Shown here one piece after another: positions 3,706-63,834 of a stretch of 64,000 nucleotides of DNA; position 1 is the first letter of the stretch, and every line of letters starts with the position of its first letter. The notes beneath the pieces were generated by a model that was not told the DNA's origin, did no database searches, and saw nothing but the letters and a program-made list of their open reading frames with translations. This stretch comes from a virus. Taxonomy: Duplodnaviria > Heunggongvirae > Uroviricota > Caudoviricetes. The stretch is taken from the IMG/VR virus record IMGVR_UViG_3300045988_145635. One strand, written 5' to 3'. A program made the translations under genes and the position numbers.

Positions 3706-3798
3706 CGGTTGTTAGTGCATATGCATTGACCGTCTTTTCGTAAGCAATTCATGTAACTAGAAAACAACTTGTTTTAACAAATAACAAAAGGAAAGCAC

Positions 3799-4224
3799 AT
3801 GTTAGGTTTATTCAAAAAGAAAACTCGTAAAGCTGTTATCGAGGTCAAAAAAATGGAGAACCGAGATGCGGTTGAAGCCACCGTGTGGGGCGCGTACATG
3901 ATCTCCTATGCCGATGGCACATGCGACGCAAAGGAAATTTCCATTCTTGAGAAAACAATTGCAGCTCTGCCTGCGTTTTCTCCGTTTGCTGGTGAGATTG
4001 CCCAAATGAGCGCCAATATCCGTGCTCAATACGAAGCCTCACCGCGCCGCGCTAATGCCCAGGCTTTACGTGAGCTGGCTGATGTGGCCGGGACTAATGA
4101 TGCAGTAGATGTACTGTGTCTGTGCCTTGATATTGCCGACCAAGACGGTATTGGCGAACAAGAAGAGCTGGCCCTGAAAAAGATCGCACAGGCGCTTCAG
4201 TTGTCACTGGATGCTTATCTCTAA
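3799..4224 (+). CDS. TerB-like domain protein
   Basis: Two DG-x-x-D/E-x-x-E-x-x-x-L segments (YADGTCDAKEISILEKTIAAL; DIADQDGIGEQEELALKKIAQAL) as in TerB-family proteins; operator motif A upstream. Confidence 0.55.
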   Translation: MLGLFKKKTRKAVIEVKKMENRDAVEATVWGAYMISYADGTCDAKEISILEKTIAALPAFSPFAGEIAQMSANIRAQYEASPRRANAQALRELADVAGTNDAVDVLCLCLDIADQDGIGEQEELALKKIAQALQLSLDAYL

Positions 4225-4382
4225 TGCTTGAGAGATTCCGGCTTGTGACCGTCATTGCTCTTCTGGTGATGGCGGTGTTGGTGGATTTTACGGGAAAGAT
4301 GATGTCTGTCATTTCTGATGGCGTCCTCATTGGTCTGGCGATCTACTTCGCTTATCCGCTAGTCCGTAAAGCAACGTGTTAA
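4224..4382 (+). CDS. Small hydrophobic protein (52 aa), translationally coupled to TerB-like gene
   Basis: ATG overlaps the TAA of the upstream gene (TAATG); MLERFRLVTVIALLVMAVLV... two hydrophobic segments; below the ORF-track length cutoff. Confidence 0.4.
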   Translation: MLERFRLVTVIALLVMAVLVDFTGKMMSVISDGVLIGLAIYFAYPLVRKATC

Positions 4383-4521
4383 TGACAAGGGCCAAATGGC
4401 CCTTGTGTTTCGTTGACCGAAATAGAGAGTTTGCACCTTTACGTTTAGCTTGCTCCCCTTTTATGCCACATCACAATAAAGCCAATAAGAAAACAACTTG
4501 TTTAAGCATTAGGAAAAACAC

Positions 4522-5091
4522 ATGTGCAAGAAATGCAAAGCGATAGCTGATGAACAAAACGCCTTATTCGAAGAAATGGATGCTAATGAACTGGTCAAAA
4601 TGTTAGCCATTCTTCGAGGAATAGAAGACGTTTCCATATTTGAGAGAGTGGTTACAGCACTTAATTTTGAGTCCACCTTTGAAGAGCCAACTCAGGTTGT
4701 AGCTTTAGCACATCATTTCGGTGTTCATTATCTTGCTGAAAAAGAGCGCGCTGATAAGTTGCAGGCGACTTTGGATATGGTGAGCGAGACTCAACGAACT
4801 GATGACACTAACAAGAGTGAGGCGATTATTGCCAGCAAAGATCGTGAAATTGCTGGGCTTAAATCCTCTCTAACGATGTTGATGTCTGCGTTCAATCTTA
4901 TGTCTTCTCAGGCGGGTTATAAAATGCCATCACTAAACAGCGATGATCCGATGGCCGTTCGTCAGCTTTTGGGAGCAATGGCCGACCAACTCGACGACAC
5001 AAAGAGTCGGCTTGAAGACATGATGCGTGAGTTAAGCCATCGACATAACCTCGCAACACAGCCACACAAAGCCTTTCAAAGCTCTAATTGA
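4522..5091 (+). CDS. Hypothetical protein
   Basis: 189-aa ORF preceded by operator motif A (4488-4504). Confidence 0.5.
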   Translation: MCKKCKAIADEQNALFEEMDANELVKMLAILRGIEDVSIFERVVTALNFESTFEEPTQVVALAHHFGVHYLAEKERADKLQATLDMVSETQRTDDTNKSEAIIASKDREIAGLKSSLTMLMSAFNLMSSQAGYKMPSLNSDDPMAVRQLLGAMADQLDDTKSRLEDMMRELSHRHNLATQPHKAFQSSN

Positions 5092-55190: not shown

Positions 55191-58100
55191 ATGTGGTACA
55201 GGGAAGGTACTATCACATTTACACAGGGTAGCAATACTCTGGTTGGGGCAGGGACAGCCTGGAACGTAACAGCTAATGGTGTGTTGCCGGGGATGATCGT
55301 CATTGGCCCCGACAATAAGCTGTATGAGATCAAGCGCGTAATAAGCGATACGAATATTGTTCTCTCAGAACCTTATACCGGCGAAACTCAGTCTGAGGTT
55401 CCGTGCCGAATCATTACGACCTATGAAGGCGACTTAACACAGTTTAGCGCGCGCTTTACAGCACTAATGTCGCGTATGTCGGCTGATTCCAAGTCTATGC
55501 GCAGTTGGTTGACTGCTCTGGATGAGGTGACAATCGAGCGTGAAGACGGTACAGAAGTAACCGTTAAGCCGCTAATGCAGATCGTCAACGAGCACAACGA
55601 AAACGTTGAGTGGTATAAAAATAACACTGACGCGATTGATGCTGCTGGCGACAAAGCTCGTGAGGCAGCGGCCAGTGCTGCCGCAGCAGCAGAAAGCGCC
55701 AATACCGCTGGAGAAAAAGCCTCTCAAGCGTCTCAAAGTGCATCCGCTGCGGCATCCTCACAAAGTGCCGCAAGTGCGAGTGCAACTGCTGCGAAAAAAT
55801 CTGAAACGAATGCCGCAGCGTCACAACAATCAGCAGCCACTTCTGCATCCACCGCGACCACGAAAGCGTCAGAAGCTGCCACCTCAGCCCGGGATGCGGC
55901 GGCCTCAAAAGAGGCAGCGAAATCATCAGAAACGAGCGCAGCCTCGAGCGCCAGTAATGCCGCTTCCTCGGCAACGGCGGCAGGAAATTCCGCGAAGGCG
56001 GCAAAAACGTCCGAGACGAACGCCAGGTCTTCTGAAACGGCAGCGGGACAGAGCGCCTCGGCTGCGGCAGGCTCAAAAACAGCGGCTGCGTCGTCTGCCA
56101 GTGCCGCGTCAACAAGTGCCGGGCAGGCCTCAGCCAGTGCCACCGCCGCCGGAAAATCGGCAGAAAGTGCCGCATCGTCTGCTTCAACAGCCACAACGAA
56201 GGCTGGCGAAGCCACTGAACAGGCCAGCGCAGCAGCGAGGTCTGCTTCCGCAGCGAAGACATCCGAAACGAACGCGAAAGCGTCGGAAACCCGTGCAGAA
56301 TCCTCAAAAACGGCAGCCGCATCGTCCGCCAGTTCGGCAGCGTCATCGGCATCATCTGCGTCTGCTTCAAAAGATGAGGCGACCAGACAGGCGTCAGCAG
56401 CGAAGGGCAGCGCCACGACGGCATACACGAAAGCAACAGAGGCGGCAGGCAGTGCGACGGCAGCATCTCAGAGCAAAACTGCTGCTGAATCCGCTGCGAC
56501 CCGTGCGGAAGCTGCTGCTGATCGTGCTGAAGAGATTGCCGGTGCAGTTGCGATGGAAGACGCAAGCCTTACAACTAAAGGTGTTGTGAAACTTAGCAGT
56601 GCTGTCGACAGCACCAGTGAATCGCTGGCCGCAACGCCAAAAGCAGTTAAAGTAGTCAATGACAATGCGAACAGCAGGGTGCCATCTAACCGAAAAATTA
56701 ACGGGAAAGCACTGACTGCGGATATCACATTAACGCCGAAAGATATTGGTACTTTAAATTCAATAACGATGTCTTTCTCTGGCGGGGCCGGGTGGTTCAA
56801 ACTGGCTACTGTTACAATGCCACAAGCGAGTTCCATCGTTTACATCGCATTGATTGGTGGCGCTGGTTACAACGTCGGCTCCCCACATCAGGCAGGCATT
56901 TCAGAACTGGTTCTACGAGCAGGCAATGGAAACCCCAAAGGGATTACAGGTGCTTTGTGGAAGCGTACAGCTGTCGGATTAACGAATTTCGCCTGGATCA
57001 ACACATCCGGCGATACATATGATATTTACGTTGAGATTGGCAATTATGCGACTCGTGTAAATATCCATTGGGATTGTACTGCAAATGCGACAGTTTCTAT
57101 TTATACATCGCCAACATATTCAGCTAGTAAGCCTTCCAGCGTTACCGATGGTGTTGTTTATACGATGTATAGCACACATCAGAAACCGACGCCGTTAGAT
57201 ATTGGAGCACTGCCAACAACCGGAGGAACAGTTTCAGGTCCGTTGTCTGTTACTGGTGGGATCACCGGAACATTAAATGGTAATGCAAGTACAGCAACGA
57301 AATTGCAGACGGCAAGATCTATCGGTGGAGTTGGTTTCGACGGTTCTGCAAATATCAACCTTCCAGGTGTAAATACTACGGGTAATCAGAACACCACTGG
57401 TAATGCTGCAACTGCTACAAAACTTCAGACGGCAAGAACTATCGGCGGCGTGAGCTTTGATGGTACTGCGAATATTAATTTGCCAGGTGTTAATACGACT
57501 GGTAATCAGAATACAACGGGCAACGCGGCTACTGCTACGAAGTTGCAGACTGCGCGTACTATCAATGGGGTGTCGTTTGACGGCTCGGCAAATATTTCCT
57601 TGTCGCCAACAAATATAGGTTGCCCGGCATCTCCTACTGGTTGGTTAACTACAGGAAGTAATGGCGGAGCAATAACAACAGCACAGTTAGTGACGTTATT
57701 GCAAAATAATGGTGCTTTTAATGCAAAGGCATGGATAGCGCGTTGTGCTTGGGCGTATGCAAATAGTGCATCCATACCAGACAGCGAAACAGGATGCGGC
57801 ATTATTCCACTGGCTGGCGCAGTTATTGAGGTATTTAATAACGGTAGTAGCTCAAACAATTATACGATCCGCATAACAACGGCCACAACGACAAGTGTTT
57901 CCGGTGCTCTCACTAATGCGGAGTTTATCTATGTATTTAACGGGACGAGCTATTCACCAGGATGGCGCAGAGCGTATAACACTAAAAACAAGCCTACTGC
58001 GGCTGATGTCGGAGCTTTACCACTATCTGGAGGAGCGTTAACTGGCGGATTAACGTCTTCTGGTGAGATCGTTTCAAAATATGCAAATGGTTTCCGCATT

Positions 58101-59216
58101 GCTTACGGTAGCTTTGGGTTCTTTATCCGTAATGATGGATCGAACACATATTTCATGCTAACAGCATCAGGAAACACATTAGGTTCATGGAACGGTTTGC
58201 GACCTATTACAATTAATAATACCAGCGGTGCTGTGTCCATTGGTAATGGACTAAATGTTACTGGTGGCGTAAATGGTAGTTTGAACGGTAATGCTTCAAC
58301 AGCTACGAAGTTGCAAACTGCTAGAAAAATAAGCGGCGTGTCTTTTGATGGTTCTGCTGATATAACACTAACAGCTGCAAATGTATCTGCTTTTGCTCGA
58401 CGCGCTACTGGAACTTATGCCGATACTAGTGGTGCGGTCCCGTGGAATGCCGAATCAGGTGCGTATAATGTTACACGCTCCAGGGATTCTTATATCGTTG
58501 CAAATTTTTATATAGGCGTAGGTAGTTGTCGGACTCTCCAAATCCGAGCGCATTATAAAAATGGTGGATTGTATTACCGTTCATCACGTGATGGCTATGG
58601 GTTCGAAGAGGACTGGACTCAGATATATACTAAAAAAGACAGCATCCCAGGTGTGAATGCAGATGGGAACCAGAACACTACTGGTAATGCTGCCACCGCC
58701 ACAAAATTGCAGACAGCAAGGAAAATTGCTGGTGTGGCGTTTGATGGCTCTGCCGATATTACTTTGACTGCGGCTAACCTTAATGCTTATACGAAAACAG
58801 AGGTAACGAATCTTCTAAGTTCCTATGTGAAGAGCAGTGCTCTTCCAAGCATGACTGTGCGAACTTCCTCTATTTCAGGTGGGGATATGGGCATGAGTTT
58901 GTCCACATTCATTAGCCACCTTAAATCAAATGGGGCGTTTAGCAAAAGATATTGGATTGGCTTTGGCGATGCTATGGGATTCAATGCTGGCAGTATCAAC
59001 AATATAACGGGATTTGGTGCTGTAGAATTAGCAGAATCTATAATCGAAGTTTTTAATCTACCTAACGGTGATTATACAATTCGTTTAACAACGTCACATA
59101 AAGCTGATTACGGTGGAGTGACAAACGCAATCCTCGTTTATCACTACCGCAGTAATAGAAGTCCGTCAGGTCAATGGCTGAAATTTGCCGGTACTGTTGG
59201 GGCAACAAGTAACTGA
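55191..59216 (+). CDS. Side tail fibre protein
   Basis: Ala/Ser-rich low-complexity region followed by repeated GNASTATKLQTAR.IGGV.FDGSANI phage-fibre repeats. Confidence 0.75.
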   Translation: MWYREGTITFTQGSNTLVGAGTAWNVTANGVLPGMIVIGPDNKLYEIKRVISDTNIVLSEPYTGETQSEVPCRIITTYEGDLTQFSARFTALMSRMSADSKSMRSWLTALDEVTIEREDGTEVTVKPLMQIVNEHNENVEWYKNNTDAIDAAGDKAREAAASAAAAAESANTAGEKASQASQSASAAASSQSAASASATAAKKSETNAAASQQSAATSASTATTKASEAATSARDAAASKEAAKSSETSAASSASNAASSATAAGNSAKAAKTSETNARSSETAAGQSASAAAGSKTAAASSASAASTSAGQASASATAAGKSAESAASSASTATTKAGEATEQASAAARSASAAKTSETNAKASETRAESSKTAAASSASSAASSASSASASKDEATRQASAAKGSATTAYTKATEAAGSATAASQSKTAAESAATRAEAAADRAEEIAGAVAMEDASLTTKGVVKLSSAVDSTSESLAATPKAVKVVNDNANSRVPSNRKINGKALTADITLTPKDIGTLNSITMSFSGGAGWFKLATVTMPQASSIVYIALIGGAGYNVGSPHQAGISELVLRAGNGNPKGITGALWKRTAVGLTNFAWINTSGDTYDIYVEIGNYATRVNIHWDCTANATVSIYTSPTYSASKPSSVTDGVVYTMYSTHQKPTPLDIGALPTTGGTVSGPLSVTGGITGTLNGNASTATKLQTARSIGGVGFDGSANINLPGVNTTGNQNTTGNAATATKLQTARTIGGVSFDGTANINLPGVNTTGNQNTTGNAATATKLQTARTINGVSFDGSANISLSPTNIGCPASPTGWLTTGSNGGAITTAQLVTLLQNNGAFNAKAWIARCAWAYANSASIPDSETGCGIIPLAGAVIEVFNNGSSSNNYTIRITTATTTSVSGALTNAEFIYVFNGTSYSPGWRRAYNTKNKPTAADVGALPLSGGALTGGLTSSGEIVSKYANGFRIAYGSFGFFIRNDGSNTYFMLTASGNTLGSWNGLRPITINNTSGAVSIGNGLNVTGGVNGSLNGNASTATKLQTARKISGVSFDGSADITLTAANVSAFARRATGTYADTSGAVPWNAESGAYNVTRSRDSYIVANFYIGVGSCRTLQIRAHYKNGGLYYRSSRDGYGFEEDWTQIYTKKDSIPGVNADGNQNTTGNAATATKLQTARKIAGVAFDGSADITLTAANLNAYTKTEVTNLLSSYVKSSALPSMTVRTSSISGGDMGMSLSTFISHLKSNGAFSKRYWIGFGDAMGFNAGSINNITGFGAVELAESIIEVFNLPNGDYTIRLTTSHKADYGGVTNAILVYHYRSNRSPSGQWLKFAGTVGATSN

Positions 59217-59755: not shown

Positions 59756-60448
59756 ATGAAGACTCCGAGAGGCATTCGTAATAATAACCCCGGTAATCTT
59801 GATAAAGGATCACCGTGGCAAGGTCTGGTTGCGAATCCAGACGAACCGCGCTTTTGCACGTTTAAAGACCCTGTTTGGGGGATTCGTGCGCTGGCGGTGA
59901 CTCTAATTACCTACCACGACAAACGTCGCGCAAAAGACGGCTCAAGTATCGATACCATTCGTGAAGTTATTGAACGCTGGGCACCGCCGAATGAAAATAA
60001 TACTGACGCCTACATTAATGAGGTGTCTAAAGCCGTTGGTGTAACCGCAGACATGATCATCGATCTGCATGATTACGACATCCTTCGACCTTTGGTTGAG
60101 GCAATCATTCGCCACGAGAATGGCCGAGGCCCGCTAAAAACGCTGAACACCTGGTATGCGGCAGAAGTTATTGAGGAAGGTCTGCGTCGAGCTGGCGTTG
60201 TTAAGCCGGTGAAAACCGTGAAGGCTGTTCCTGTAACTAAAGAAACCGCAGGCGCAACTGTTACAGCAGGTATTGGTCTGGCGCAGCTGGCCGATGTTAT
60301 GCCGCAGGTTTCCGCTGCTATGGATAAAGCACAAGGTCATATCTCTAGCGGGGATACAGTACGCATCATCTTCGGCATTGCCACTATTTTTGTGGCCGGA
60401 TTCATTGCCTGGTCGCAGGTAAGAAGACACCAGAAAGGGATGGTCTAA
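59756..60448 (+). CDS. Putative endolysin / cell-wall hydrolase-like protein with C-terminal TM anchor
   Basis: Position between holin-like and spanin genes; AGGAG RBS; catalytic family not recognised (RNNNPGNL motif). Confidence 0.4.
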   Translation: MKTPRGIRNNNPGNLDKGSPWQGLVANPDEPRFCTFKDPVWGIRALAVTLITYHDKRRAKDGSSIDTIREVIERWAPPNENNTDAYINEVSKAVGVTADMIIDLHDYDILRPLVEAIIRHENGRGPLKTLNTWYAAEVIEEGLRRAGVVKPVKTVKAVPVTKETAGATVTAGIGLAQLADVMPQVSAAMDKAQGHISSGDTVRIIFGIATIFVAGFIAWSQVRRHQKGMV

Positions 60449-60449
60449 T

Positions 60450-60701
60450 ATGCTAGGCAGCCTGATGACAAAGCTAAAAGTTGCTTTGATTACGCTGGCT
60501 GCCGTTCTTTTCGTTCTGGTCGGCGCTTACACGATGGGCGGAAATGCGGCGCGACGAGCAATGGAAGAGAAGGCAAAACAGGAAGACAGAAAACGACTTC
60601 AAAACACAGTGAAAGTGGTGAATGAGACGAGCAGTAAAATACGTCAGAAAGATGCTTCTGCCGTTCATCGTGAGTTGTATGATAAGTGGGTGCGTCATTA
60701 A
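60450..60701 (+). CDS. i-spanin (Rz-like)
   Basis: N-terminal TM (VALITLAAVLFVLVGAY) plus charged periplasmic region; typical size. Confidence 0.65.
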   Translation: MLGSLMTKLKVALITLAAVLFVLVGAYTMGGNAARRAMEEKAKQEDRKRLQNTVKVVNETSSKIRQKDASAVHRELYDKWVRH

Positions 60702-60837
60702 ACCACAAACAGCCAGCGTGTTGTTCTGCGATGGGGCTGAGCCTATCTATATCAGCAATAATGATGTAATGACTGAAGAAACCGAACGCCAAATCCTTTT
60801 TCACAATACGATGGGAGAGAGGGTTTGTGGTTGGTGA
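60652..60837 (+). CDS. o-spanin (Rz1-like lipoprotein), overlapping the i-spanin gene in the +1 frame
   Basis: MLLPFIVSCMISGC lipobox; starts inside the Rz-like gene. Confidence 0.55.
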   Translation: MLLPFIVSCMISGCVIKPQTASVLFCDGAEPIYISNNDVMTEETERQILFHNTMGERVCGW

Positions 60838-60869
60838 TGTCGAAGTTCCCCTCAAATGAGGGGAACACA

Positions 60870-61391
60870 TTATTCTTCGAACAATTTTTCGATAGATTTT
60901 GTAGGATAGAACAAAGAACGCTCGTTGTTACCAACCAGCTGGATAAAGCCTAAACTTTTATAAAACGCCTTGGCTTTGTCATTTAACGCCTCAACGAAAA
61001 GTCCATGAATGCCTACAGCAAGAGATGCATTGTACACAACGCGCATTGCATGTGTTACAAGCATTGAGCCAAATCCTTGACCTTGAAGGGACTTGTCCAA
61101 AGCCAGCCTACCCAAAGTAACACTTGGAACATTCCGATAAGGAACCTTCTTTTGTTTGCTTCTTGAAGGTAAGGACTCCTTTTCAAAACAACTACCTGAC
61201 AAAGTGTAATATCCTAACACTTTTGGCCTTTCTTCTTGAGTGCAAAGCACATAAGCACGAAGAATTTTTCCCTCATGCTGCCTTTTTAAGTGGTTGGCTA
61301 AAAAGGCGTTTAGTGACTCTTCGCCGCAATCAAAACCGTTTAGATCATAATCTTTCTCTCCAGAGAAAATCTCTATCGTTGTATTGCTCAC
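60870..61391 (-). CDS. GNAT-family acetyltransferase toxin (TacT/AtaT/ItaT-like)
   Basis: 173 aa; GNAT core (QGQGFGSMLV); paired with an upstream DUF1778-type gene. Confidence 0.7.
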   Translation of the reverse strand: MSNTTIEIFSGEKDYDLNGFDCGEESLNAFLANHLKRQHEGKILRAYVLCTQEERPKVLGYYTLSGSCFEKESLPSRSKQKKVPYRNVPSVTLGRLALDKSLQGQGFGSMLVTHAMRVVYNASLAVGIHGLFVEALNDKAKAFYKSLGFIQLVGNNERSLFYPTKSIEKLFEE

Positions 61392-61398
61392 GAGTAAA

Positions 61399-61668
61399 CT
61401 ACTCCATGCTTTTCAGACGATCAGCAGCTCGTTTCAGCTTGTCGTTCGGTGCCGGAGGATTGCTTATAGCGTCCATAACCAGATTCCAGGACTCTTCACT
61501 CAGAACCAGTCTTCGATGTTGCTCTATAACTTTCACGGCACGTTCAGATGCACTGCTAACCATAAACTGAGTAATGCTCTGGTTAGACATTGCGGCAGCT
61601 TCCTCGATGATGCTTTTATCGTCATCGGTTAATCTCAAATCGATGCGCTGCTTTTTTAGTGCTGACAT
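61399..61668 (-). CDS. DUF1778-type RHH antitoxin (TacA-like)
   Basis: ~89 aa from the AGGAGG-preceded ATG; immediately upstream of the GNAT gene on the same strand. Confidence 0.65.
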   Translation of the reverse strand: MSALKKQRIDLRLTDDDKSIIEEAAAMSNQSITQFMVSSASERAVKVIEQHRRLVLSEESWNLVMDAISNPPAPNDKLKRAADRLKSME

Positions 61669-61934
61669 GTATTCCTCCTGATGGCCGTGATGTAGGAAGG
61701 CCATCAATCTCCTCTGTTCAAACTGAGTTTTCGACTCAAAAATTACTTTAAAAGGCTATAGCCCATTACGTGTGCATTATCAAATTGTGTACGGCATATC
61801 ACCGTACTTGTAATATAGAGGTCATTGTTACTTTTTTCAACAGACAAATACAAGCTATGATTGCCAATTGTTAATCACAACCTACCATTTAACCTTTACA
61901 CCGCAGCCGTAGGCATTTAGGCTATATCACATAT

Positions 61935-61954
61935 AAGAAAACAAGTTGTTTCAG
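61935..61954 (+). promoter_or_regulatory. Operator motif A site upstream of the ParA-like gene
   Basis: AAGAAAACAAGTTGTTTCAG palindrome 33 nt before the start. Confidence 0.5.
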
Positions 61955-61986
61955 ACGATAATTATATACGCAAAGGGAACTCTCCA

Positions 61987-62655
61987 ATGACCAAGATCTT
62001 TGTGGTTGGCGGCACAAAGGGCGGGCCTGGCAAATCCACCGTTGCCCAGCAAATTGCCGTTTGCCTTAAAGTCAAAAAGAAGAAGAAGGTTTATATCACT
62101 GATATAGATATTCAGCGCACGACAACAAGCTGGTGTGAAGACCGTCGACAGAACGAAGACCTTGAGCTGATTCCTTTTGCATACGTTCAGGATGACATCA
62201 TTAAGCACCTAAAATCGCTTCAGGGTAGAGCTGAGTATGTAGTGGTAGATGCTGGTGGCTTTGACTCCGAAATTCAGCGACAAGCGATGCTGATGGCCGA
62301 CGTTATCATTATCCCGCTTCGTCCTAAGCGTCGTGATTTGAAATCTCTGCGTGACATTGATCCTATTATCGACAATGTTCGTAATGTAAACGATAAAGTG
62401 AAGGTCCGCGCGGTCATGAACCAGTGCCCGGCTTTGCCATCACAAGTGTCTCGCATTCTGGCGGCTAAAGAGATTGTTGAGACGTTTGGCATCGAGTCTG
62501 CGCCAGTCAATCTATATAACCGCAACGTCTATGATGATGCGGAAGAGTCTGGTCGTTCTATCTTTGAAATGACCGGTAGCGAGCGCGACAAAAAGGCGGA
62601 AGCCGAGTTTGAAGAATTTGTAGATTATCTGTTGAGTCTGGAGGAAAAAGAATAA
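61987..62655 (+). CDS. ParA/ParF-type partition ATPase
   Basis: Deviant Walker A GGTKGGPGKST; 222 aa. Confidence 0.8.
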   Translation: MTKIFVVGGTKGGPGKSTVAQQIAVCLKVKKKKKVYITDIDIQRTTTSWCEDRRQNEDLELIPFAYVQDDIIKHLKSLQGRAEYVVVDAGGFDSEIQRQAMLMADVIIIPLRPKRRDLKSLRDIDPIIDNVRNVNDKVKVRAVMNQCPALPSQVSRILAAKEIVETFGIESAPVNLYNRNVYDDAEESGRSIFEMTGSERDKKAEAEFEEFVDYLLSLEEKE

Positions 62656-63014
62656 TGTCCATGAAAATGGGTGACCTAGCAAAGCGCAAAGAGCCTGATG
62701 CACCGGCTAAGAACACAACTCCTTTGCGCCAACCAGTCAGACCACAGGGACGCCCGACTCGTGGCAAAGAGAAAATTAAAAGCCGCACAATGTCACTGGA
62801 GGACGAATACTTCGAACTGCTGGAGATGATGAAGTTCATCCCTCGCTTCGAGAAGTTCACTCGTTCTGACGTGATTCGTGCTGCTATTTTCCATCTTGCG
62901 GAGAAGACACCGCAGGAAATCGAGGACATCGTGAAACTTAACGAGGCGATCACCGCTGCCGATGTCACGATGCGTACCGATGAAATCAAACGAGAGTTGA
63001 TGAAGAAAGGTTAA
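62655..63014 (+). CDS. Small RHH-type centromere-binding protein (ParG-like)
   Basis: TAATG-coupled to the ParA-like gene; basic N-terminal tail plus C-terminal beta-alpha-alpha pattern. Confidence 0.55.
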   Translation: MSMKMGDLAKRKEPDAPAKNTTPLRQPVRPQGRPTRGKEKIKSRTMSLEDEYFELLEMMKFIPRFEKFTRSDVIRAAIFHLAEKTPQEIEDIVKLNEAITAADVTMRTDEIKRELMKKG

Positions 63015-63066: not shown

Positions 63067-63834
63067 TTATGCCGCGCTAACACTATGTTCAGTCCTAACC
63101 ACCCCAACCTTCACAAAAGGGCTACCGTAGCTTGGTGGCTTCTTGATTAATTTGCCTACATACAGTTTTCTAATATGCTCATCGGCTATTCTGCCAACAA
63201 ATTCATAACGTTTTGTGTCGGGGCCAAGAGCTATATCCCTTGTAAAGTACTGCTGAGAACCGGCTTTGACCCAGCATTCAATCTGATAAACTTCCATTAT
63301 CAGCCCACCATATGTAGCGTAGGCATATTTGAGATTCTCGTCTCTTGGAACCTTTGCCCATACGCCACGCGTAGCTTCATATAATGCCAGAGCGGACATT
63401 CCTGACTTGTAGGTGCTGTTTAGCAGGAAGGCAAGACCGGCGTGCTCAGGAGCAATTTCAGTTTCCTCTTGCAGCACTAAGTGATGGTAGGCGTCCAGTG
63501 ATATTCTGCCCATCATGGAACCACTTCCTCGTACCTTATTCGTAAGCTCTCCGACCCCCATAAGGTCGATGCATGTCGCCTCAACAAGTTTGGCTGTGGT
63601 TTCATCCATACCATGACGAAGTATATCTATGCCTAATTTTTTATTAGCCAAAAGTTCTTTGATCCGCATGGATTTGGGAGAGTCATCGGGATACTTGATG
63701 TGATCGAGACAACGAGTCGATTTGCCTTTTCCTATGTAAAACGGTCTTTTCATCTTGTCTTCTGTATCATAGAGACAGTAAACATAGTATTTAGCCTTAT
63801 CCAATGATCTCGCGTATACCGATAAATCGTCCAT
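63067..63834 (-). CDS. GIY-YIG nuclease-domain protein with uncharacterised C-terminal domain
   Basis: N-terminal YYVYCLYD ... PFYIGKGKSTRCLDH fits the GIY / YIG / R / H pattern. Confidence 0.55.
   Translation of the reverse strand: MDDLSVYARSLDKAKYYVYCLYDTEDKMKRPFYIGKGKSTRCLDHIKYPDDSPKSMRIKELLANKKLGIDILRHGMDETTAKLVEATCIDLMGVGELTNKVRGSGSMMGRISLDAYHHLVLQEETEIAPEHAGLAFLLNSTYKSGMSALALYEATRGVWAKVPRDENLKYAYATYGGLIMEVYQIECWVKAGSQQYFTRDIALGPDTKRYEFVGRIADEHIRKLYVGKLIKKPPSYGSPFVKVGVVRTEHSVSAA

Follow-up and report, generated by a model that had tools for sequence, protein, structure and literature searches.

A GNAT/DUF1778 toxin-antitoxin pair of the AtaRT/KacAT type in an exchangeable cassette beside the partition genes of an SSU5-like phage-plasmid

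Introduction

Why should a tailed phage carry a toxin-antitoxin (TA) gene pair next to partition genes, and are the two genes what they appear to be? The question is raised by a stretch of 64,000 nucleotides from the IMG/VR virus record IMGVR_UViG_3300045988_145635 (Caudoviricetes), which is referred to here as the window. An original prediction, made from the letters of the sequence, held that two adjacent minus-strand genes encode a DUF1778 antitoxin followed by a GNAT toxin in the layout of TacAT and AtaRT, that toxins of this kind acetylate aminoacyl-tRNA and are used for plasmid addiction and phage defence, and that the position of the pair beside genes for ParA and a ribbon-helix-helix (RHH) protein marks a plasmid-like maintenance module. 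Here we consider the two genes, their control region, the DNA around them and their distribution among complete Escherichia coli genomes, and we weigh the roles that the pair may have.

Results

An intact GNAT/DUF1778 pair of the AtaRT/KacAT subgroup

The feature is a real, intact and correctly classified GNAT/DUF1778 pair. Both open reading frames (ORFs) are present on the minus strand, antitoxin first and toxin second with a 7-nt gap, as had been predicted (Table 1), and the proposed TacAT/AtaRT-type layout came through every sequence-level test. The toxin exceeds the curated cut-offs of four Pfam GNAT families (Acetyltransf_7, Acetyltransf_1, Acetyltransf_10 and FR47), and the antitoxin matches Pfam TacA1/DUF1778 (PF08681, E 3.2e-26, residues 8-86). 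Among solved structures in the PDB, the toxin aligns end to end and with zero indels to AtaT (6gts, E 1.4e-79) and over residues 4-172 to KacT of Klebsiella pneumoniae (5zgn, E 3.9e-75), and the antitoxin aligns over its full length to KacA (E 3.6e-41) and AtaR (E 7.2e-40), whereas the remaining solved GNAT toxins match the window toxin at E 1e-11 to 1e-22. In global alignments the toxin is identical to AtaT at 120 of 172 positions (70%), and the antitoxin is 75% identical to AtaR and 79% to KacA. Because the matches to AtaT, KacT, AtaR and KacA are full-length and those to other GNAT toxins are far weaker, we place the pair in the AtaRT/KacAT subgroup, and grouping by match E-values assigns it to clade A (AtaT, KacT, AcaT). 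Two members of this clade as defined by Bikmetov et al., AtaT and KacT, acetylate Gly-tRNA and several hydrophobic aminoacyl-tRNAs in vivo (PMC9177977).

The functional residues of these homologues are largely retained. The acetyl-CoA loop of the toxin, QGQGFG (residues 103-108), ends in G108 as in AtaT, and the catalytic Y144 (AtaT Y144, KacT Y145) falls within the conserved motif AFYKSLGF; the usual mutations for detoxifying AtaT are G108D and Y144F (PMC7595197). Hence the catalytic position on which the original prediction turned is in place, together with Gly108 and the acetyl-CoA loop, and the claim that this is a toxin of the aminoacyl-tRNA-acetylating kind holds at the level of sequence. 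Sixteen of 21 AtaT catalytic, pocket or tRNA-contact residues are identical in the window toxin, including Y85, R95, F30, L27, H34, R37 and most of the Ser/Lys cluster at 76-82. The antitoxin keeps R8, D10 and R12, which are the DNA-contact residues of KacA (PMC6698736), as well as the toxin-interface residues M65 and I68, and at positions 70 and 77 it has N and K, the residues of AtaR. When the window genes were compared with those of a 91.5% identical allele (L004), the ratio of nonsynonymous to synonymous substitution rates (dN/dS) was 0.063 in the toxin gene and 0.019 in the antitoxin gene, which indicates strong purifying selection, and both genes are annotated as intact in every record listed; the toxin is therefore not decaying. 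As far as the sequence can tell, every defining feature of the GNAT/DUF1778 family is found.

The gene starts were also considered. The GTG start of the toxin has a GGAG 10 nt to its 5' side and is common to two diverged phage-plasmid alleles (L004 and L006, the latter described below), and the N-terminal sequence TIE(I/M)F that it yields is kept across phage-plasmid alleles. For the antitoxin, in-frame starts further upstream (TTG 61707 and ATG 61704) would give a longer protein, and ATG 61704 is the start of the 101-aa version annotated in phage-plasmid Cyrano. We prefer ATG 61668 because AGGAGG lies 5 nt before it and because AtaR and KacA, whose N-termini read MSA/MPA-(V/L)KKQRIDL, begin at the equivalent Met; the longer start is ruled out on the same grounds. 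Three further ORFs were rejected. A 126-aa minus-strand ORF (60490-60870), whose ATG overlaps the toxin stop as TAATG, might be taken for a third gene of the operon, and was discarded because it lies antisense to the conserved Rz and Rz1 genes and to a hairpin, spans the cassette junction and encodes a Cys/His/Pro/Ser-rich sequence that is not protein-like. The 148-aa and 82-aa plus-strand ORFs within the TA genes were taken to be antisense shadows.

A predicted promoter, and a putative operator like those of characterized homologues

The two genes form a bicistronic unit, antitoxin then toxin on one strand, with a lone promoter-like site upstream. This predicted promoter, TTGAAA/TATATT, is the top promoter-like site of a regional scan (10/12 matches), and its -10 box lies 4 nt upstream of a perfect palindrome in all four alleles that were aligned. 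The leaders of these four alleles are otherwise unalignable, so that the -10 box and the palindrome half-sites, the latter invariant, stand out as conserved islands. The palindrome pattern occurs once in the 64-kb window when up to one mismatch is allowed (0.05 expected by chance) and exactly once in each of five TA-bearing loci, and is absent from both TA-less loci compared, those of SSU5 (L002) and PhiR41_1 (L003). The KacAT operator that was crystallised with KacA4KacT2 is GTACGGTTATTAACCGTAC, in longer form AAATGTACGGTTATTAACCGTACATGA (PMC6698736), and the chromosomal ataRT promoter of E. coli carries GTACGGTGACATACCGTAC; the half-sites and their 7-nt spacing are identical in the window, KacAT and chromosomal ataRT. 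The KacAT palindrome spans the transcription start site (PMC6698736), and the window arrangement, a -10 box followed by the palindrome across the predicted start, fits this. From its uniqueness and its placement as in the homologues, we infer that the palindrome is the autoregulatory operator of an antitoxin4-toxin2 complex.

Between the operator and the ribosome-binding site lies a long leader, which contains the in-frame upstream TTG and ATG codons mentioned above and for which ViennaRNA predicts two hairpins, TGAGTCGAAAACTCA at 61724-61738 and GAUGGCC...GGCCAUC abutting AGGAGG. The leader is kept in allele L004, differs in L006 and is absent from chromosomal ataRT. When 60400-62100 was scanned against Rfam with E values up to 1, the only matches were sub-threshold and attributable to chance (to a snoRNA, a miRNA and a fragment of a group II intron), and the leader matched no Rfam family. 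At the other end of the operon, a GC-rich hairpin that falls within cassette-specific DNA is terminator-like on the plus strand, and the minus-strand 3' end folds at -17.3 kcal/mol; its role as a terminator of the TA transcript is uncertain because there is no U-tract on the TA side. Separately, an imperfect palindrome, TGATTGCCAATTGTTAATCA, is located at 61858-61877, just inside the right cassette junction at 61880, and could be a recombination site, a regulatory site or a chance occurrence.

Table 1. Positions of the TA genes, their predicted control elements, the cassette and the partition neighbours in the window.
Feature	Position	Strand	Details
GNAT toxin gene	60870..61391	minus	173 aa; GTG start 61391, stop 60870-60872; AtaT/KacT-like aminoacyl-tRNA N-acetyltransferase by homology
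Intercistronic spacer TTTACTC	61392..61398	minus	7 nt, from antitoxin TAG to toxin GTG
DUF1778/TacA-family RHH antitoxin gene, AtaR/KacA-like	61399..61668	minus	89 aa; ATG 61668, TAG 61399-61401
Antitoxin ribosome-binding site AGGAGG (Shine-Dalgarno)	61674..61679	minus	5 nt 5' of ATG 61668
Long 5' leader, operator to ribosome-binding site	61680..61788	minus	109 nt; two predicted hairpins (ViennaRNA)
Putative palindromic operator GTACGG-TGATATG-CCGTAC	61789..61807	both	perfect palindrome, 7-nt spacer
Predicted sigma-70-like promoter	61812..61840	minus	-35 TTGAAA 61835-61840, 17-nt spacer, -10 TATATT 61812-61817
Perfect 9-bp GC-rich hairpin GTTCCCCTCAAATGAGGGGAAC	60845..60866		within the 32 bp that separate the convergent Rz1 and toxin genes
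Exchangeable cassette	60835..61879		1,045 bp: hairpin, toxin, antitoxin, leader, operator, promoter
ParA-type ATPase gene	61987-62655	plus	Pfam AAA_31, MipZ, CbiA; NCBIfam ParA_partition E 2.3e-33, below its cut-off
119-aa ParA-partner gene	62655-63014	plus	overlaps the parA stop; matches phrog_5111 of unknown function

An exchangeable cassette on a phage-plasmid

The window derives from an SSU5-like E. coli phage-plasmid. A 2.9-kb region around the pair is 99.4% identical to pLF82 (NC_011917) and 99% identical to phage Cyrano, a re-annotation of pLF82; many plasmids of 105-120 kb, predicted to be non-mobilizable, also match it at 99% identity. In all, related plasmids number roughly 1,100. 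Genes for a tail fibre, holin, endolysin, Rz and Rz1 lie upstream, and parA, its 119-aa partner, a helicase and a primase lie downstream. Homology by blastn to SSU5 and PhiR41_1 ends at 60829 and 60834, at the Rz1 stop codon, and in both cases picks up again precisely at 61880, with 107 bp left to the parA ATG. In these two elements the slot (3797-4953 of the SSU5 locus L002; 3628-4803 of the PhiR41_1 locus L003) holds instead two plus-strand genes, phrog_2594 (~135 aa) and phrog_3307 (~235-258 aa), for which no Pfam, NCBIfam or PADLOC match was obtained. A third cassette type is seen in pYUYZPE244-1 (NZ_CP139126.1; locus L006, 3658-4700), where the Rz1-parA slot is filled by a diverged GNAT/DUF1778 pair, with a toxin 62% and an antitoxin 89% identical to those of the window. 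This cassette departs from the others at the same right junction, has its own terminator and carries the operator GTACGG-AAAGACG-CCGTAC ~210 nt upstream of the antitoxin ATG. It should be noted that RefSeq appears to annotate this second toxin from an internal ATG, since an in-frame GTG 3 nt past the antitoxin stop yields the conserved N-terminus. Klebsiella relatives have other cargo in the slot, including helix-hairpin-helix and HEPN-domain genes. The sharp junctions and the differing cargo lead us to regard the pair as an exchangeable accessory cassette and not as a fixed part of the partition module.

The distribution of the locus was surveyed in 5,426 complete E. coli genomes, with the cassette allele counted at 90% nucleotide identity or more. 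The allele is present, always as a single copy, in 152 genomes from pig, poultry, soil, human and other sources, and it is on a plasmid in all 152 and on the chromosome in none. The lysis-parA backbone is found in 255 genomes, always on plasmids, and 143 of the 255 have the full cassette arrangement; in ~40% of the E. coli relatives the slot contains the two-gene phrog unit rather than the TA pair. The proposal of a plasmid-like maintenance module is thus borne out in its plasmid context, and set aside in so far as it made the pair a fixed component, since the cassette is swappable and its slot variable.

The junctions common to three cassette types in one slot, and the second diverged GNAT/DUF1778 allele found there, also bear on a different explanation. 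The cassette might be a purely selfish hitch-hiker, its own loss being lethal and its spread being by recombination into the slot, with zero net benefit to the phage-plasmid, or it might be an anti-addiction or cross-regulatory partner of chromosomal ataRT. The identity of the operator half-sites with those of ataRT, which is on ~1,626 chromosomes among the 5,426 genomes, is in keeping with such a partnership, as is the count of at most 71 genomes with two matching records where ~90 would be expected if the two were independent, a figure derived from the survey counts. This depletion, however, is weak and confounded by phylogeny, and the count includes unrelated plasmid alleles. Moreover, cross-neutralisation is conjectural, since the antitoxin departs from AtaR in the C-terminal half that binds the toxin, and purifying selection fits any functional role. 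We give this explanation only a slim chance. A broader proposal, that the Rz1-parA gap of SSU5-like phage-plasmids is a cassette-exchange hotspot into which GNAT/RHH alleles have been captured at least twice, with exact retention of the operator half-sites and DNA-contact residues found in chromosomal ataRT, and that chromosome and plasmid cross-repress and possibly cross-neutralise each other's systems, is one that we put forward tentatively and with considerable doubt. If true, the addictiveness of the cassette would depend on the ataRT status of the host, a host-range and anti-addiction interplay that is undescribed for phage-plasmids, and the stability of these elements would differ between E. 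coli lineages.

The partition neighbours and a second variable slot

The parA gene is divergent from the antitoxin gene and 318 bp away from it, and the identification of ParA in the original prediction is supported by Pfam. The accompanying RHH label fared less well, as the 119-aa partner has no Pfam, PADLOC or meaningful PDB phmmer match. A single-sequence AlphaFold2 model of this protein has a disordered N-terminus and three helices and is weak (predicted local distance difference test score 64, predicted template modelling score 0.26). Cyrano labels the same protein a 'RelE/ParE putative toxin', a label without Pfam, PADLOC or PDB support, whereas its position suggests that it is the centromere-binding partner of ParA.

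Directly after parAB, the minus-strand gene at 63067-63834 encodes a 255-aa GIY-YIG protein (Pfam LEM-3_GIY-YIG, E 5.5e-7) that matches the PADLOC model of PD-T4-3, a single-gene anti-phage system (E 1.3e-23). The PD-T4-3 gene is also present in PhiR41_1 and in the loci L004-L006, and Cyrano and SSU5 have different genes in this place. We therefore recognize a second variable slot, which assorts independently of the TA slot.

The occurrence of this gene 1.4 kb from the TA pair, on the far side of parAB, raises the possibility that the pair serves in abortive infection, or more generally in anti-phage defence or competition between elements. Specifically, shut-off of host transcription by a superinfecting phage would lead to decay of the labile antitoxin, and the freed toxin would stop translation and halt the cycle of the invader, which would protect the lysogen population and the resident phage-plasmid. 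The location of the pair in a variable accessory slot, in which relatives carry cargo that includes a HEPN-domain gene, is consistent with such a role, and so is expression of the pair during lysogeny in Cyrano (PMC9928086). In addition, a preprint (10.1101/2025.09.12.675607) reports various defence systems, PD-T4-3 among them, on phage-plasmids of the SSU5 group, and tRNA-targeting toxins are a common defence strategy (PMC12409363). However, neither TA protein matches any of 5,027 PADLOC models (0 families at E up to 0.01), and searches of the literature brought up no report of phage protection by a GNAT/DUF1778 pair, the one paper obtained only listing TacT among tRNA-modifying toxins, so that the phage-defence use named in the original prediction found no backing here. 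Literature searches for GNAT/DUF1778 pairs on phage-plasmids likewise yielded nothing specific. A tRNA scan of the window found zero tRNAs, so the phage supplies none to which a tRNA-targeting toxin might be related. We consider a defence role unlikely; it would in any case be compatible with addiction.

Elsewhere in the window, the plus-strand gene at 55191-59216 encodes a tail-fibre protein of 1,341 aa in which a long segment of low complexity is rich in Ala and Ser and the motif GNQNTTGNAATATKLQTAR(T/K)I is repeated several times. The Cyrano annotation makes it homologous to the S tail fibre of P1, and its C-terminal parts vary between relatives.

Discussion

Proposed mechanism and role of the pair

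Based on these data, we now put forward a hypothetical mechanism, drawn from structurally solved homologues that are 70-79% identical to the window proteins. We propose that the pair is a functional AtaRT/KacAT type II TA operon, that it forms a self-contained cassette of 1 kb on an SSU5-like phage-plasmid, and that it is expressed in lysogeny and acts by post-segregational killing; we hold this reading as a whole to be probable. Its molecular part, the identity and mechanism of the pair as being of the AtaRT/KacAT type, is by analogy with those homologues very likely correct. The toxin dimer would use acetyl-CoA to acetylate the alpha-amino group of charged tRNAs and so block translation, and the substrates, as for clade A, would be Gly-tRNA and tRNAs charged with several hydrophobic amino acids, including Met. 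The antitoxin would form a toxin-antitoxin2-antitoxin2-toxin hexamer in which both acetyl-CoA binding and toxin dimerisation are blocked, and the RHH domains of the hexamer would bind GTACGG-N7-CCGTAC at the transcription start, such that the operon represses itself. By the example of KacAT, an excess of toxin would lift this repression through conditional cooperativity. The operon would be on in lysogeny, and upon loss of the plasmid-prophage the protease-labile antitoxin would disappear and the remaining toxin would arrest the cured cells. Post-segregational killing of this kind would complement partition by the adjacent ParA.

Four lines of evidence make post-segregational killing the best-supported role. 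In Cyrano lysogens the toxin is transcribed 35-fold and the antitoxin 60-fold above the local background (PMC9928086); a GNAT TA pair, GmvAT, depends on Lon when it stabilises the Shigella plasmid pINV and a test vector (PMC6519299); the window allele occurs on plasmids only; and the pair is positioned beside parA. That plasmid addiction is the main role, which we argue by analogy, we put somewhat above an even chance. Several considerations weigh against it. The toxicity, neutralisation, antitoxin lability and plasmid stabilisation of the window allele are all inferred from its homologues. Five AtaT tRNA-contact or pocket positions are changed in the window toxin (A26S, R40E, N41G, R71K and K77R), and its tRNA targets or their preference could therefore differ in detail from those of AtaT. 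The copy number of Cyrano is ~5.5 per cell (PMC9928086), and with that many copies and active partition, loss of the plasmid may be too rare for killing to matter much. Chromosomal ataRT, with the same half-sites and present in ~30% of E. coli, could supply cross-neutralisation of the toxin, so that addiction would be weaker in such hosts. Finally, SSU5, PhiR41_1 and ~40% of the E. coli relatives are maintained without the pair, which is therefore dispensable.

Transcription in lysogens also invites the view that the pair is a host-benefit 'moron', whose toxin, released stochastically or under stress, would produce non-growing persisters that tolerate antibiotics or macrophages, the phage-plasmid gaining through survival of its host. 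GNAT toxins are cited for persister formation by Salmonella in macrophages (Rycroft 2018, as cited in PMC12409363), KacAT has been discussed in the context of drug tolerance (PMC6698736), and the Cyrano pair is among the lysogeny-expressed morons of that element in LF82, a macrophage-adapted strain of adherent-invasive E. coli (PMC9928086). For the window allele such a role is argued by analogy, however, and the confinement of the allele to plasmids (152/152) fits selfish maintenance better than host adaptation; the carriers, moreover, come from the many sources listed above. We judge a host-benefit role to be improbable and retain post-segregational killing as the preferred reading.

What is known and what is added

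The presence of the pair on such elements is already known, because it is annotated in Cyrano, was mentioned among the lysogeny-expressed morons in a 2023 paper (PMC9928086), and is labelled in RefSeq as 'GNAT family N-acetyltransferase' and 'type II toxin-antitoxin system TacA family antitoxin' on more than 100 plasmids. It is an intact but ordinary TA pair of a well-studied type and requires no new biology. What is added here is detail, namely the correct starts, the putative operator, the predicted promoter and the cassette borders, together with the repeated capture of GNAT/RHH pairs in one slot and the sharing of operator half-sites with chromosomal ataRT. The direct value of this is limited, yet it provides a precise annotation for a module that ~3% of the complete E. 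coli genomes possess. Resistance genes can occur on related elements. It also corrects two public annotations, namely the over-long Cyrano antitoxin and, for the ParA partner, the label 'RelE/ParE toxin', which lacks family support. The locus illustrates on a small scale how the phage core of phage-plasmids stays conserved while the plasmid-type cargo changes, with two variable slots that flank parAB and assort independently, the TA pair residing in one and PD-T4-3 in the other.

Comparison with known systems

GmvAT of Shigella flexneri pINV and TacAT of Salmonella belong to the same GNAT/DUF1778 family. GmvAT, which is set beside the window pair here by family membership, supplies the experimental precedent: encoded on a low-copy plasmid, it stabilises that plasmid, and does so in dependence on Lon. 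TacT-type toxins form clade D and are specific for Gly-tRNA, in contrast to the broad specificity of clade A (PMC9177977).

KacA-KacT of K. pneumoniae (PDB 5xun, 5zgn) is much closer. Its antitoxin shares R8, D10, R12, M65 and I68 with that of the window at 79% identity, the toxins match along nearly their whole length, and the operator has the same half-sites and spacing. Positions 70 and 77 of the antitoxin are Q and R in KacA and N and K in the window, the central operator spacers differ, and conditional cooperativity has been demonstrated for KacAT only.

AtaR-AtaT of the E. coli O157:H7 chromosome (PDB 6gts, 6ajm, 6gto, 7chd) has the same gene order, with a gap of 6 nt where the window has 7 nt. 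G108, Y144 and most tRNA-contact residues of AtaT are kept, the toxins align without indels, and the half-sites GTACGG/CCGTAC with their 7-nt spacer lie just past the -10 box in both. At ~66% nucleotide identity, however, the window pair is a distinct allele with the five toxin substitutions given above, and it is borne only by plasmids, whereas ataRT is found between panM and livJ (for example at 577-1422 of the chromosomal locus L007). The AtaT gene starts with ATG and the window toxin gene with GTG, and ~26 nt separate operator and ATG in ataRT, compared with 109 nt from operator to ribosome-binding site in the window. As a separate observation, some strains appear to carry both systems; AMSCJX04 is an example, with ataRT on chromosome NZ_CP058308 and the plasmid pair on NZ_CP058309, judging from the consecutive accessions and the same host source.

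The closest system is CYRAN_26/CYRAN_27 of phage-plasmid Cyrano (pLF82, OV696614 / NC_011917). It differs in its annotated antitoxin, which is extended to 101 aa from the upstream ATG, and in having another gene downstream of parAB where the window has PD-T4-3. Otherwise it is effectively the same locus in the same Rz1-to-parA setting, with a toxin gene (CYRAN_26, there labelled 'KacT Acetyltransferase-type toxin') that is identical at the DNA level and an antitoxin that differs by 1 aa (S57N).

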